Positions 34,656 to 38,599 are shown, counted from the first letter of the stretch. The stretch is DNA of 64,000 nucleotides from Planctomycetota bacterium (GCA_023954375.1 JAMLIC010000006.1:18972-82971); one strand, 5' to 3'. Numbers and translations: made by a program. The notes: generated by a model not told the origin, from the letters alone.

Positions 34656-34800
34656 CGCTGTTCAGCTTTTAGCTGTTAGCTGTTAGCTTTTGGCTCTTGG
34701 CCTTTAGCTCTCATTGGCCTCTCCTACTCTCAGGAGGCATGCAGCCGTCAAAGGCCAAGAGCTAACAGCTAACAGCTAAAAGCTAACAGCTAAAAGCTAC
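34656..34800. repeat. low-GC composite palindrome: inverted arrays of ~7 heptamer repeats (AGCTGTT/AGCTTTT...) flanking a ~35-bp spacer that itself contains CTCCT..AGGAG
   Basis: Left array 34664-34710 (agctttt agctgtt agctgtt agctttt ggctctt ggccttt agctctc). Right array 34747-34800 is its approximate reverse complement (gctaaca gctaaca gctaaaa gctaaca gctaaaa gct). GC is about 45% against ~74% around it. Directly abuts the IS91-family element. Confidence 0.85.
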
Positions 34801-35174
34801 AAGCTCCCACAGCACTTCGCATCGCCCTAACCAAGAGGCGATTGAGAGTCGCTCGCGGCGAGCACGGCCTCGCCCGGCCGGGCGCCTGCCCCGCGAGCGG
34901 CGAGCAATCGACGGGTTGAACTATGCCGCTGCGCGGCGGCGGTCGTTCGCGTGAGCCGCCCGGCTATGTGCAGATTGGCGGTCAGCGGGAGGGGCGAGGC
35001 TGTCTTGGCACGGGTCGCGAGCGAGGATCTTCGACGAGTCGGCACGCGACGGGGAGCGGGGCGGCCGACGCAAGTCCTTGGGCGGAGGTGCCGAGGACGT
35101 GGACCGCCGAGACCGGCGGCCCGAGGAAGGACGCGGCGGGGGAGTGGGCGGGGTCGTGGCGAGGCGCTGCGTCG

Positions 35175-36395
35175 TCACGTGTCCGGCTCCGGAAGGGGCG
35201 CCGACGCGATCTCGCCGGTGGCGGCGTTGATGGCGAAGCGGCGCAGGAAGCCCACCTTGCACGCGGGACAGCGACGCGGGTCGGTGCCGGTGAGGCGCTC
35301 GAGGAGCTCGCGCACCGTCGAGGGCACGGGTTCGGGGTTGGTCGTCTCGCCCTCGGCTGCGAGGACGGCGCGAGCCTGTTCGAGCTTGGTGTTGACGTTG
35401 CTCGGGGCGTGCACCCCGTAGTGCCGGATCTTCACGAAGCGGGCCGGCAGGATGTGCTGGAGGAAGCGGCGGATGAACTCGACGCCGGAGATCGTCGCCG
35501 TCTCGCCGTTCTTGGTGCTGAAGGTGACGTCCTCGGCGTCCATTTCGAGCAGGCGGTGGTTGGACATGCCCACGCGGTGGGTGTAGAGGCCGAGGTAGCG
35601 GAAGACCTGCTTGGGGCCGGCGAAGGGGCGCTTGGCGTAGACGACCCACTTCTTGCGATGGAGGCGGTCCTTGAGCTCGGCGAAGGCGTGGCGCTCGACC
35701 TCGACGTCGTCGCCGAGGTCGAGCTGGCCGTCGTCGACGAGCTGCGTGAGCCTGGCGAGGAACTTGCCCCGGAAGAGCGCGGAGAGCACCTTCACGGGGA
35801 AGAGGAACCGGCTGCGGCCGCCCGCGCTCACCCAGCGCGAGCCGTCCGGCGAGAGGCCGCCGCCGGTCACGATGCAGTGGGCGTGGGGGTGGTAGCCGAG
35901 GTCGCGCCGCCAGGTGTGGAGCACGGCGGTGATGCCGGGCGTGGCGCCGAGCCACTTCGGATCGGCGGCGAGGTCGAGGAGCGTGCGCGAGGCCGTGTCG
36001 AAGAGGAGCTTGTAGAAGACCCGCTGGTTGCGCCGCGCGAGCTGCTGGAGCTCGCTCGGTAGGGTGAAGACGACGTGGAAGTAGGGGACCGGCAGGACGC
36101 GCCGCATGCGCTCGAGGACCCACTTCGCCTGCCGGAGGCTCTGGCACTTCATGCAGTGCCGGTCCAGGCACGAGTTGTAGGCGGGCACCTCGTGTCCGCA
36201 GTGGTCGCAGACATCGAGGTGCCCGCCCTTGGCCGCCGTGCGGCACGCCACGATGGCGTCGAACGCGCGCTGCTGGCCGAACGTGGGTACGTAGCGAGAG
36301 CGGTACGCCTCGCCGAAGGCGCGGAACACGTCCGCCACCTCGAAGCGAGGGCGTTGCCGTTCGAGCTCGAGGGTGCAGCGCGCGTCGCGCTGCAC
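35175..36395 (-). CDS. IS91 family transposase (HUH Y2 rolling-circle transposase)
   Basis: 406 aa. N-terminal zinc-binding cysteines (CDHCGHE…CLDRHCMKC). HUH motif VLHTWRRDLGYHPHAH. Paired catalytic tyrosines FRYLGLYTHRV (Y-x3-Y). C-terminal CPACK. Confidence 0.9.
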   Translation of the reverse strand: MQRDARCTLELERQRPRFEVADVFRAFGEAYRSRYVPTFGQQRAFDAIVACRTAAKGGHLDVCDHCGHEVPAYNSCLDRHCMKCQSLRQAKWVLERMRRVLPVPYFHVVFTLPSELQQLARRNQRVFYKLLFDTASRTLLDLAADPKWLGATPGITAVLHTWRRDLGYHPHAHCIVTGGGLSPDGSRWVSAGGRSRFLFPVKVLSALFRGKFLARLTQLVDDGQLDLGDDVEVERHAFAELKDRLHRKKWVVYAKRPFAGPKQVFRYLGLYTHRVGMSNHRLLEMDAEDVTFSTKNGETATISGVEFIRRFLQHILPARFVKIRHYGVHAPSNVNTKLEQARAVLAAEGETTNPEPVPSTVRELLERLTGTDPRRCPACKVGFLRRFAINAATGEIASAPLPEPDT

Positions 36396-36401
36396 CGAGC
36401 G

Positions 36402-37328
36402 CTACCCGAGGACTCCGCCGGCTGCCGTGCCGATCAGGTCGAGCGGGCTCTTGCTCGCAGCGATGTGGCGCGTGCTGACGTGCGTGTAGCGCACCGTCGT
36501 GCGGATCGACGCATGGCCGAGGACCGCCTGCACGGTGCGCAGGTCCGCGCCTGACTCAAGGAGATGCGTGGCGAAGGAGTGCCGCAGGACGTGGGGCGTG
36601 ACCCGCTTCGTGAGCCCGCACGCCTCCACCGCGCGCCGGAGCGCGTGGCGGACGGCGCCATAGCTCACGAACCCGTCCGCGCCGTCGCCGGGGAAGAGGC
36701 GCTCGCGCCCCGGCTTGGCCGCCTTCCAGTACTCGCGCAGGAGCAGCAGGAGCCGCTCGCTGAGCATGATGTAGCGGTCCTTCTTTCCCTTACCCTCGCG
36801 GACGCGGAGAACCATGCGCTTGCTGTCGAGGTCCGCGCACGTGAGGCGGCACGCCTCGCTGATCCGGAGGCCGCCGCCGTACGCCGTCGAGAGGATCGCG
36901 CGATGGCGGAGCGACTCGATGGCCGCGAGCAGCTGCTCCACTTCGGTGCCGCTGAGGACGACCGGGAGCGACTTGGGCACCCGTGGCCACGGAATCGTCT
37001 CCACGACCTCGGGGCGCTGGAGCGTCCGCGCGTAGAGGAACTTCAGCGCCGCCACGAACATCTTCAAGCTCTCGGGCCCCACCCCGCGAATCTTGTGCAG
37101 GTGGAGCAGGAAGCAACGGACCTCCGTCTCGCCCAACTCAGCGGGAACGCGCATGTAATGCGCCACGAACGTGTCGGCGCACCGCGTGTACTCCTTGATT
37201 GTCCTGGCCGAGTAGTTCGCGAGCTCGAGGTCCGATACCATGCGGGCGCGGGTCGACTCAGAAAGCATGAGGCACTCCTGGAGCCTCGGGGAGCGGATCT
37301 CCTCGGGACCCCAGGGGCCGACTCGCAC
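36402..37328 (-). CDS. tyrosine site-specific recombinase (phage-integrase/XerD-like) associated with the IS91-family element
   Basis: Catalytic residues in canonical order (R…, HVLRHSFATHLL, GHASIRTTVRYTHV with the nucleophilic Tyr). Start is GTG 37328 or ATG 37268. Six nt downstream of it is the transposase start. Confidence 0.85.
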   Translation of the reverse strand: MRVGPWGPEEIRSPRLQECLMLSESTRARMVSDLELANYSARTIKEYTRCADTFVAHYMRVPAELGETEVRCFLLHLHKIRGVGPESLKMFVAALKFLYARTLQRPEVVETIPWPRVPKSLPVVLSGTEVEQLLAAIESLRHRAILSTAYGGGLRISEACRLTCADLDSKRMVLRVREGKGKKDRYIMLSERLLLLLREYWKAAKPGRERLFPGDGADGFVSYGAVRHALRRAVEACGLTKRVTPHVLRHSFATHLLESGADLRTVQAVLGHASIRTTVRYTHVSTRHIAASKSPLDLIGTAAGGVLG

Positions 37329-37459
37329 TTACGGTCAGTGACCACCTCCTGCGGCCCCGGGGATAGCGCCCCCGGGGTCGCAGGAGCGTCTCCGCTCACC
37401 CCGCGCTGCGCGACAGGCCTTCGTGGGCCAGCCCGCCAGCTGCCGCGCAGCGGCTTAGT

Positions 37460-38599
37460 TCAACGCCCCAGGAACGCCTCGACCTGCCCGCGGACGTCCA
37501 TGCCGTCCTTGTAGCCCAGCTCGAGCAGGCGCGTCGTGTAGGTCTCCTCGAACGACAGGTAGCTGAGCACCTCGGACGCCTCCTCGGGGCTGCCCATGCC
37601 GCGCAGCAGGTAGCGCAGGACGCGCGGGAGGTGCCAGGCCTCGTCGCTGGCGATGTGCCCCAGGTCCTCCGAGGGCTGGATCGAGAGGAGCTCGATCGGC
37701 CGCGCCGGGGCGCCGGCCGGGACCATCCCGGTGACCTCGAGCATGCGGTTGACGCCGTTCAGGCGCTCGACGTCGTAGTCGACGGCGTCGAAGAACACGG
37801 CGTTGAGGAGCACGCCGAGGATCCGCGCGATCGTCGGCTGCACCGGCCAGGCCGCGTCGTCGTGCGGCCCCGGCCGGCGCCGCACGCCGACGACGATCAG
37901 CCGGTCCGCGCCCAGGTGGATCGCGGGCGAGAGCGGCGCCGTGTTGCGCAGGCAGCCGTCGCCGTAGAACGCGCCGTCCACCTCGACCGGCTCGAAGAAG
38001 ATCGGGATCGCCGACGACGCCATGACGTGCTCGACGCCGAGGGTCACCTCGCGGCTGAGCCGCCGCCGTCGCCGCCAGGGCCGGACCCGCCCGGCCGACT
38101 CGTAGAAGGTGGTCGTGTGGGCCGAGGCGTAGTCGGTCGCCGTCAGGGCCACCCCCGAGAGCACCCCCTGCTCGACGTTGCGCCGCAGGCTGGTGAACGG
38201 CACGGTCTCGGCGAGCAGCCGCCGCAGGGGGCGGGTGTCGAGGAGCGCCGTCGCCGGCGCGCCGCCGACGACCGGGCTCACGGTCAGCGTCCGCATCCAG
38301 CGCGCGCCGATGCGCCCGAGCGCGAGCGGGCTCGTGTCGTAGACCATCTCGGGCCGGAGCCGCCCCCACAGCTCGCACAGCCGGCGCGCCCCGCCGAGGA
38401 AGTCGTGGCCGAACGCGCCCAGGAAGGCGGCGTTGATCGCCCCCGCGCTCACCCCGGCGATCGCCCTGAACGGCGCCGCGATCCCCAGGTCGGCGGCGAT
38501 CTCGGCGAGCGCCCGCGCCACCCCCGCCTGGTACGCCCCCCGCGCGCCGCCGCCGGAGAGGACGAGGCCCATCGGCACGACCGACCGCGAGAGGACCAC
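37460..38599 (-). CDS. patatin-like phospholipase
   Basis: GGGxRG oxyanion motif (LSGGGARGAYQAG), nucleophile elbow GVSAG, catalytic DG (FYGDG). Likely start ATG 38572. Stop codon TAA lies inside the IS right inverted repeat. Confidence 0.85.
   Translation of the reverse strand: MVLSRSVVPMGLVLSGGGARGAYQAGVARALAEIAADLGIAAPFRAIAGVSAGAINAAFLGAFGHDFLGGARRLCELWGRLRPEMVYDTSPLALGRIGARWMRTLTVSPVVGGAPATALLDTRPLRRLLAETVPFTSLRRNVEQGVLSGVALTATDYASAHTTTFYESAGRVRPWRRRRRLSREVTLGVEHVMASSAIPIFFEPVEVDGAFYGDGCLRNTAPLSPAIHLGADRLIVVGVRRRPGPHDDAAWPVQPTIARILGVLLNAVFFDAVDYDVERLNGVNRMLEVTGMVPAGAPARPIELLSIQPSEDLGHIASDEAWHLPRVLRYLLRGMGSPEEASEVLSYLSFEETYTTRLLELGYKDGMDVRGQVEAFLGR

Follow-up and report, generated by a model that had tools for sequence, protein, structure and literature searches.

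Positions 34832 to 37464 (minus strand) of the window, by which we mean the whole 64,000-nt stretch of Planctomycetota DNA analysed here, very probably (we would say roughly 85%) hold a single, intact insertion sequence of the IS91 family that belongs to the subgroup with a recombinase gene upstream and would move in the manner of IS91, IS801 and IS1294. The whole element has 2633 bp, with ends set from nine related copies, and its anatomy is the ordinary, canonical one of IS91, IS801 and IS1294. Its parts and immediate surroundings are as follows:

34829-34831, minus strand: GTT triplet, the presumed target, which abuts the oriIS-side end, reads GTTA together with 34828 and equals the first 3 nt of the element
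34832-37464, minus strand: whole insertion sequence, in transposase sense 5'-GTTGAACTAAGCC...CAATCGCCTCTTG-3', delimited by related-copy homology
34832-34914, minus strand: oriIS-like terminal segment of 83 nt with a CAATCGCCT box (34836-34844) and an imperfect palindrome (34839-34858 / 34891-34910)
34915-34945, minus strand: internal inverted copy of the ter motif, 87% complementary to 37434-37464, the "left inverted end" of the preliminary description
35175-36395, minus strand: tnpA, IS91-family HUH-Y2 rolling-circle transposase, 406 aa from the GTG at 36395
36402-37268, minus strand: int, Xer/integron-like "simple" tyrosine recombinase, 288 aa from the ATG at 37268, with the reading frame open to a GTG at 37328
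37348-37384, minus strand: lineage-specific GC-rich hairpin with a stem of about 17 bp, some 80 nt upstream of int
37434-37464, minus strand: terIS-like end with the GTTG cleavage-site tetranucleotide (37461-37464), GAACTAA and a small hairpin (37442-37454)
37460-38599, minus strand: patatin-like phospholipase gene of the host, with its TGA stop (37460-37462) inside the element

Nine copies define the boundaries (L001, 99.96% identical; L002, 86%; L003 to L008, 80%; and L136): their homology begins precisely at 37464 and extends to 34829, and the flanks on both sides are unrelated. The ninth copy came from a metagenome scan with the 16-mer CAATCGCCTCTTGGTT, in which almost all of the matches listed were due to chance, and at least one was a real extra copy (L136), accompanied by two contig-end fragments. 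The preliminary description had instead proposed a classical element from 34911 to 37468, with imperfect inverted repeats of about 18 bp as its ends. The inverted repeat is real and even longer than described (34915-34945 / 37434-37464, 31 nt at 87%), and it is not random, as its 23-nt core occurs twice in the window, against 0.00 occurrences expected by chance. However, it does not bound the element. Its left copy lies 83 nt inside, because the homology in all related copies continues for 83-86 nt past it, to 34829-34832, and on the right the copies stop at 37464. The repeat is likewise internal in five further families, in which the left-end motif recurs in inverted form some 60-85 nt inward of the right end. 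Judged by this comparison, an element that terminates in the inverted repeats, to which we leave only a minute probability, is already refuted. We count the three nucleotides 34829-34831 as target and not as part of the element, by analogy with IS801 and IS1294 (PMC13181058) and in keeping with the patatin reading frame. The element then opens with GTTGAAC and closes with CTCTTG, next to the GTTA target, and there is no duplication longer than the shared triplet.

The low GC content that the preliminary description reported was confirmed (70.6% in the element versus 76.7% in the window), and GC3 differs in the same direction (92-95% in the element versus 99% in host genes). A non-coding stretch of about 230 nt separates tnpA from the inverted ter-motif copy (transposase sense). 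Scans of 34600-37600 for promoter and terminator consensus sequences found none, and Rfam gave sub-threshold chance matches only.

An IS91 transposase with HUH motif, YxxxY motif and zinc-binding N-terminus had been claimed from the start, and this claim is borne out by matches to Zn_Tnp_IS91 (PF14319, 2.1e-28) and Y2_Tnp (PF04986, 3.2e-53). Membership in the IS91 family is supported by a score of 402.7 bits against NF033538 "IS91 family transposase" (cutoff 125), with 354 of 356 model positions covered. The HUH histidines (H171/H173), the tyrosines of the Y2 motif (Y267-L-G-L-Y271-T-H-R) and the cysteine cluster do not vary in 14 homologues. Residues 15-25 likewise show no variation among homologues, which favours the long tnpA start, 6 nt past the recombinase stop. 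Transposases of ISCR elements have a single catalytic tyrosine (Y1) (PMC10288648); we rejected ISCR membership, since Y267 and Y271 are both present. An exact-sequence look-up of the window transposase in sequence collections (start codons as called) returned no match, and a scan of genome contigs revealed no identical copy. With a best full-length match of 68% amino-acid identity in the genome collection, the copy appears to represent a distinct lineage.

The recombinase gene is on the same strand as tnpA and stops 6 nt ahead of the longest transposase start, and the description of int as Xer-like also stands: Phage_integrase (PF00589, 4.6e-44) and SAM_4 match the product of 36402-37268 (or 37328). 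GLRISE, HVLRHSFATH and LGHASIRTTVRYTHV align with catalytic motifs of XerA, and the R...HxxR...H...Y pattern is visible. The closest solved structures are XerA (4a8e), IntI4 (2a3v) and XerD (1a0p). Nevertheless, the scores stay below the curated cutoffs for XerA (206.6 vs 220), XerC (187.9 vs 335) and XerD (178.8 vs 330), and the protein is Xer-like without being an orthologue of any of the three. We also rejected identity with IntI, because the protein is below the cutoffs of TIGR02249 (200.6 vs 265) and NF011946 (161 vs 435), and because the IntI models match in two stretches that skip the IntI insertion; the IntI4 structure likewise aligns in two stretches. Gene callers place a 288-aa int in each of L001 to L008.

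Recombinase and transposase genes travel together. In 74 of the 76 related loci with upstream sequence, from many phyla, the transposase is immediately preceded by a substantial match to the recombinase, and the other two (L037, L050) retain a recombinase remnant only, so that the term "composite" in the preliminary description is misleading. Order, strand and a spacing of 4-6 nt are kept in Myxococcota, Acidobacteriota, Desulfobacterota, Alphaproteobacteria and Bacteroidota, and RefSeq annotates the pair on pRL10 (Rhizobium johnstonii 3841) and pMSR-1 (Magnetospirillum gryphiswaldense), with gaps of 6 nt and 4 nt, respectively. Transposase identity to plasmid-borne family members is at most 46%. 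The pair moves as a unit of 2.5-2.7 kb, there are families with 2-5 copies, each of 2.4-2.7 kb, within one genome, and P0020 is a natural recombinase-transposase fusion protein. One might suppose that an integrase-type element and an IS91 element merely lie side by side by chance, since an "IS91 transposase" and a "XerD" figure as separate mobile elements in some genome papers (PMC11194056). This idea, whose probability we regard as practically nil, is contradicted already by the conservation of order, strand and spacing across these groups, by multi-copy families that hold both genes within common ends, and by the fusion protein, which joins both. The recombinase is a conserved, co-transcribed accessory.

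The two-gene recombinase-transposase element is a widespread and known kind, to which the present copy adds a new member. ISAzo26, ISMno23 and ISWz1 are presumably IS91-family members in ISfinder with an upstream "phage integrase" ORF. Tyrosine recombinases in IS91 elements have already been described (10.1101/542381; PMC11194056), and according to Smyshlyaev et al. (10.1101/542381) such recombinases are present in ISfinder. In Bacteroidota, the same pair adjoins the resistance genes tetX and catB (PMC11194056). Van Houdt et al. (2012) make no mention of IS91.

The assignment of the recombinase-side end as the terIS side proved correct. The layout NTT|GAAC(T/G)AA, with a stem of 4-6 bp behind it, keeps its offset in 22 of 23 families. 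In the window, this stem is the small hairpin 37442-37454 (GCCGC-TGC-GCGGC / GCCGC-GCA-GCGGC), which adjoins the element end. It is kept in 22 of the 23 families and shows compensatory changes, with covariation of the first stem pair (G:C, A:T, C:G). For the fold of the ter-side region (135 nt), z is -3.6 to -3.95. The hairpin that had originally been singled out as terIS-like, with a 15-bp stem at 37348-37384, is real and has a stem of about 17 bp, but the terIS hairpin found across families is the one at 37442-37454. The larger hairpin is confined to the closest relatives: it is present in L002, and the corresponding stretch of L003 to L008 is a different sequence. It has no T-run and no terminator call, and is a possible candidate for an insulator against read-through from the patatin gene.

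At the opposite end, the 83-nt oriIS-like tail is kept in every related copy, and the CAVPIX and CAVSPC families have a comparable box and palindrome at their right ends. Subterminal palindromes are thus found at both ends, although the ori-side one is not energetically distinctive (with z = -0.3 to -0.85, shuffled GC-rich sequence folds just as well). In each of the 8 close copies, CTCTTG is followed by GTT and then by a variable base (A/T/G). The presumed target is GTT+N, with a fourth base other than C, and the element starts with GTTG; the canonical target is GTTC/CTTG. GTTC within the repeat, taken for the target at first, does not have this role; by analogy with IS801 and IS1294, the target would be GTT(A) outside the oriIS end. 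The flanks of the 8 close copies and of 5 other families have in common only the 3-5 nt that also open the element. Six families are defined by copies whose flanks differ, and five of these families have several copies in a single genome; in all six, the left end opens with the same 3 nt that follow the right end. The pairs in other families are CAT/CAT, CTT/CTT and GTT/GTT, so that end and target covary. This identity of ter triplet and target triplet across families agrees with IS801 and IS1294, in which GTTC serves both as ter cleavage site and as target (PMC13181058). L033 is a head-to-tail tandem with one CTT common to both copies, as expected from failed termination. Among the fetched loci, an uninterrupted target of the OZ255713 family was not found. 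Separately, L023 and L027 have 2 kb of left flank in common; one-ended transposition was considered for this pair and rejected, since the flank is 97.0% and the element 99.9% identical, which better fits insertion into an older repeat.

The insertion is located at the very end of the patatin gene, where the junction splits the last codon (C|GT) and the protein ends in ...EAFLGR*. The element end does supply the patatin stop, as previously stated, but the stop is TGA (37460-37462), not TAA; the TAA at 37455-37457 closes a different, spurious frame. With a single GTT, the reconstructed end before insertion is CGT TAG, and the model predicts an empty site that would read ...GAGGCGTTCCTGGGGCGTTAGGGCGATGCGAAG.... 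As the element start GTTGA resembles the target GTTAG, insertion in the last codon would have restored arginine and a stop (CGT TAG to CGT TGA). All 12 of 12 patatin homologues end within one residue of the reconstructed stop position, so that the patatin protein is unchanged and does not have the altered C-terminus that had been suggested. No phenotype can be deduced from an insertion that neither truncates nor alters the protein. An uninterrupted locus is available in the relative L009, which is without the element and also without the 194-bp spacer, and therefore allows a comparison at the protein level only. A nucleotide-level empty site was not found in the closer patatin relatives P0123 and P0124, whose neighbours differ, and an exact-sequence look-up of the window patatin in sequence collections (start codons as called) gave no match.

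Homology to IS91, IS801 and IS1294 suggests a model for the movement of the element. The Y2 HUH transposase would nick the plus strand of the window at 34831|34832, where the element borders on the AAC derived from the target, and the nicked strand would be displaced through tnpA and then int. After a second cut behind ...GTTCAAC (37464|37465), a single-stranded circle would enter the DNA on the 5' side of a GTTN site, and the target would not be duplicated. The predicted circle or tandem junction is CGCCTCTTG|GTTGAACTAAGCC.

The crossover region of classical tyrosine recombinases comprises 6-8 bp with flanking inverted binding arms. It is conceivable that the recombinase integrates the element: the junction ...CTCTTG GTT GAAC... 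of a double-stranded circle would be attP-like and recombine with GTT sites, GTT...GTT would be the duplicated core, and the HUH protein would only serve to replicate the circle or to excise it. Retention of the recombinase is universal, a direct repeat of 3-5 nt flanks every family (GTT, CAT, CTT, GACTT), and such repeats, like the L033 tandem with its one CTT, are equally expected from site-specific integration. Yet no 6-8 bp core with inverted arms is visible at the ends, all catalytic residues of the transposase are kept, the repeat rule already holds for IS801 and IS1294, which are devoid of a recombinase, and the transposase of IS91 needs no partner to insert single-stranded circles (PMC13181058). 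We therefore consider integration by the recombinase decidedly improbable, and slightly more so than the idea of an immobile, decaying relic that became fixed in the lineage, which is unlikely too. A relic would fit the occurrence of one copy in 64 kb, but neither ORF is truncated and the catalytic motifs are intact, the element has yet to reach the GC and GC3 values of the host, the patatin locus of L009 is free of the element, and the 99.96% identical copy forms a 2.5-kb contig of its own in another sample, as repeats often assemble.

If transposition is left to the HUH transposase, what might the recombinase do? Our best guess, of low confidence, is that it may act at the paired ter-motif copies, where it would resolve tandem or multimeric rolling-circle products or aid termination, the part played by Orf121 in IS91. 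Folded single-stranded substrates are used by IntI (attC) and by XerCD (CTX phage). By analogy, a division of labour can be imagined, unlikely as we judge it to be: the transposase would make the single-stranded circle, the ter motif would pair with its inverted copy inside the element to give a hairpin of about 130 nt, and the integron-like recombinase would integrate or resolve this folded substrate. The junction of the predicted single-stranded circle has such a hairpin (about 130 nt, z = -4.7). If true, this would amount to a hybrid pathway of HUH and tyrosine-recombinase transposition.

With IS91, IS801 and IS1294 the element has in common the zinc-binding N-terminus and HUH-Y2 domain, terIS upstream and oriIS downstream of tnpA, subterminal palindromes, the lack of target duplication and, probably, oriented insertion by a short T-containing target, with a ter cleavage site that would resemble the target (GTTC/GTTC in IS801 and IS1294, GTTG/GTTN here). 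It differs from them by its presumed target (GTTN instead of GTTC/CTTG), by the inverted ter motif built into the ori region, and by a full tyrosine recombinase gene, the place of which is taken by orf121 in IS91 and is empty in IS801 and IS1294. The two-gene layout and a recombinase clade without the IntI-specific insertion are shared with IS91 elements that have an upstream "phage integrase" ORF. ISCR elements have related rolling-circle transposases and the same oriIS/terIS logic; in contrast to them, both tyrosines and two recognisable ends are present here. The recombinase belongs to the same Xer/integron-like "simple" group as Xer and IntI, and the predicted junction hairpin resembles the folded substrates of IntI (attC) and of XerCD (CTX phage) in form only. 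Unlike Xer and IntI, however, it scores below the curated cutoffs, lacks the extra domain of IntI and has no dif-like core site.

For the source genome, this is a routine insertion sequence. For the family, the corrected ends (34832-37464), together with the rule that ter and target have the same triplet, offer a way to delimit the recombinase-transposase subgroup, which is very common and whose gene pair annotation pipelines now report as two unrelated genes. The retention of the recombinase across phyla and the inverted ter motif in the ori region pose a testable question about the role of Xer-like recombinases in rolling-circle transposition.

The minus strand holds two head-to-tail open reading frames, a tyrosine recombinase (int) followed by an HUH-Y2 transposase (tnpA). 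The GC content of the element stretch is 70.6% versus 76.7% for the window, which bears out the low GC noted in the preliminary description, and the GC3 of int and tnpA is 92-95% versus 99% for neighbouring host genes. The features are:

37460-38599, minus strand, patatin gene (Patatin, 2.6e-27)
36402-37268, minus strand, int, with ATG start and frame open to GTG 37328 (Phage_integrase, 4.6e-44, and N-terminal SAM-like domain)
35175-36395, minus strand, tnpA (Zn_Tnp_IS91 and Y2_Tnp domains)
34839-34858 / 34891-34910, imperfect palindrome in the outer segment of the element

The IS91-type assignment of the transposase holds: against NCBIfam NF033538, "IS91 family transposase" (cutoff 125), tnpA reaches 402.7 bits with 354 of 356 model positions covered, and all 14 aligned homologues keep H171 and H173 (HPHAH), Y267 and Y271 (YLGLYTHR) and the N-terminal cysteines. 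Because residues 15-25 are likewise invariant in this alignment, the long start GTG 36395 is favoured over the shorter one picked by gene callers. It lies 6 nt past the recombinase stop, the spacing already proposed; the corresponding gaps in RefSeq are 6 nt in Rhizobium johnstonii pRL10 and 4 nt in Magnetospirillum pMSR-1. The recombinase scores under the curated cutoffs of XerA, IntI, XerC and XerD, and IntI models match it as two stretches, skipping the IntI-specific insertion. Among solved structures, XerA 4a8e, IntI4 and XerD come closest to it, with the RxxE, HxxR and H...Y motifs aligning.

An inverted repeat of 31 nt (87%) at 34915-34945 and 37434-37464 has a 23-nt core found at only these two sites in the window (shuffles expect 0.00). 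The repeat had been described as ~18-bp ends bounding an element at 34911-37468; it is real, but nine related copies show that it does not bound the element. Transposase homologues occur on many contigs of 2.4-2.9 kb, eight of which were fetched (L001-L008; identity to the element 99.96% for L001, 86% for L002 and 80% for L003-L008, with assorted flanks). By BLAST and direct inspection, homology starts exactly at 37464 (GTTGAACTAAGCC..., transposase sense) and ends at 34829 (...CAATCGCCTCTTGGTT), with unrelated flanks past there, and a ninth copy, L136, has the same ends. Since the shared sequence runs on to 34829, the repeat copy at 34915-34945 is, on this comparison, internal rather than a boundary. 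Outside it lie 83-86 nt more of the element, containing the palindrome and a CAATCGCCT box. The copies show no target duplication; no direct repeat flanks them beyond the final three conserved bases, GTT, which are identical to the opening three.

The IS91 anatomy set out in a 2026 study has terIS as the left end, before the genes, with its cleavage tetranucleotide inside it (GTTC for IS801 and IS1294, CTCG for IS91), and oriIS as the right end, adjoining an external target, CTTG or GTTC; there are subterminal palindromes and no target duplication, and the insertion intermediate is a bottom-strand single-stranded circle (PMC13181058). Placed on this anatomy, the element is 34832-37464 (2633 bp), with GTTG as the putative ter cleavage site and GTTA (34828-34831) as the putative external target, the latter different from the reference targets.

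The end of the element does supply the patatin stop, as the preliminary description held. However, this stop is TGA (37460-37462) and not TAA, since the TAA at 37455-37457 closes another, spurious frame. The junction lies inside the last sense codon, formed by host C (37465) and element GT, followed by the element's TGA. Without the element but with one GTT retained, the sequence reads ...CTG GGG CGT TAG, so that the protein is unchanged and its stop is TAG; with neither GTT, patatin would be ten residues longer. In the 12 closest homologues (identity 66-91%) the protein ends with ...EAFLG(R/A/G) or no more than one residue away, P0134 (66%) having a longer tail instead. These end positions favour one GTT in the empty site and show that the insertion left the patatin C-terminus unaltered, contrary to the suggested change in the phospholipase. 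In L009, the nearest relative with context (patatin 89-91% identical), there is no element, and the patatin TGA directly abuts the stop of a convergent substrate-binding-protein gene.

L009 also lacks a 194-bp spacer (34635-34828, core 34661-34805; GC 53%) that separates the substrate-binding-protein stop from the element in the window. The spacer forms a long hairpin, the only one of its kind in the window, in which ~7 tandem AGCT(G/T)TT heptamers make up one arm and their complements the other (arms ~48 nt, 85-92% complementary; DNA fold z = -7.9). It has no Rfam match and may act as a terminator in both directions or represent an inserted small palindromic element. The neighbouring 919-aa frame at 30621-33380 (minus strand) has a syntenic counterpart at L009 9649-12420 with Pfam matches to Vault_3 (weak) and MVP_shoulder, and is a major-vault-protein-like gene of a probably myxobacterial genome; the order of this gene, substrate-binding protein and patatin is common to both loci.

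The subterminal hairpin at 37348-37384 was confirmed (fold z of the region -3.6 to -3.95). Of the relatives only the closest shares it, the 80% relatives having different sequence there. It sits between the co-directional patatin gene and int, past the end of the former and ahead of the latter, and might curb transcriptional read-through, but a search for terminator signatures gave none.

A transposase scan with one genome per species gave 80 loci (38-86% identity) in Myxococcota, Acidobacteriota, Desulfobacterota, Alphaproteobacteria, Bacteroidota and others. Of the 76 loci with upstream sequence, 74 have a recombinase homologue immediately upstream of the transposase and on its strand; L037 and L050 keep only a remnant. 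Several long-read genomes have multiple near-identical copies (2-5 per genome) of 2.4-2.7 kb. Left ends read NTT or NAT, GAAC(T/G)AA, then a stem of 4-6 bp closing a loop of 3-4 nt; in 22 of 23 families this stem is perfect and its offset is the same (first pair G:C, A:T or C:G). Right ends have the inverted left-end motif ~60-85 nt inside, then a palindrome, and the three bases past them repeat the opening triplet of the left end (GTT/GTT, CAT/CAT, CTT/CTT), so that ter and target triplets match. L033 holds two head-to-tail tandem copies with a single CTT between them, which read-through of the termination site in rolling-circle replication would produce.

Several further observations concern these families. 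In most of them a box like (C)CCATAG(G/C)C, spotted by eye in the ends, precedes the internal inverted ter motif by ~20-35 nt; it reads CACATAGCC in the window (~34962-34972), with counterparts in L023, L019, L084, L046, L054, L033, L215 and L216. P0020, a JGI metagenome protein of 698 aa, joins Phage_int_SAM_4, Phage_integrase, Zn_Tnp_IS91 and Y2_Tnp in one frame, either as a natural fusion or as a frameshifted read-through of the pair. Independent same-family insertions (L084-L089 in OZ255713, L077-L080 in CAVRRR) repeatedly have the same ~8 nt next to either end (...gaaaagcc before the element, ctcggtac... after it), which suggests that target preference extends past the tetranucleotide or that insertion has recurred in a short dispersed repeat; the fetched loci yielded no uninterrupted copy. 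L023 and L027 (MAG CAVPIX) carry 99.9% identical elements with unrelated right flanks, and their left (ter-side) flanks match at 97.0% identity over at least 1977 nt. Possible causes are same-site insertion in an older repeat, and co-mobilisation of the ter-side flank with later homogenisation of the element.

By analogy with IS91, the plus strand of the window would be nicked between 34831 and 34832, the nicked strand displaced toward the ter end and cleaved again between 37464 and 37465, and the resulting single-stranded circle inserted 5' to GTTN. That the recombinase is universally retained and tightly spaced to the transposase points to a role inside the element. With low confidence, it may be an accessory factor at the paired ter motifs, in tandem-product resolution or in termination control, the latter being the role of Orf121 of IS91 (PMC13181058). 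In the predicted fold of the circle junction the two motif copies pair in a hairpin of ~130 nt (-64.5 kcal/mol, z = -4.7). Integron integrases use folded hairpin substrates of this kind, and we speculate that the junction is a candidate recombinase substrate.

The first description of the element is correct in substance but errs on one boundary and on the stop codon, and the effect it proposed for the phospholipase does not hold. Tyrosine recombinases in IS91 elements have been assigned to an integron-like subgroup without the IntI insertion (Smyshlyaev et al., 10.1101/542381), and IS91-XerD pairs have been reported beside tetX and catB in Chryseobacterium (PMC11194056). An IS91 element with a tyrosine recombinase is therefore of an already known kind, of which this copy is a new lineage.
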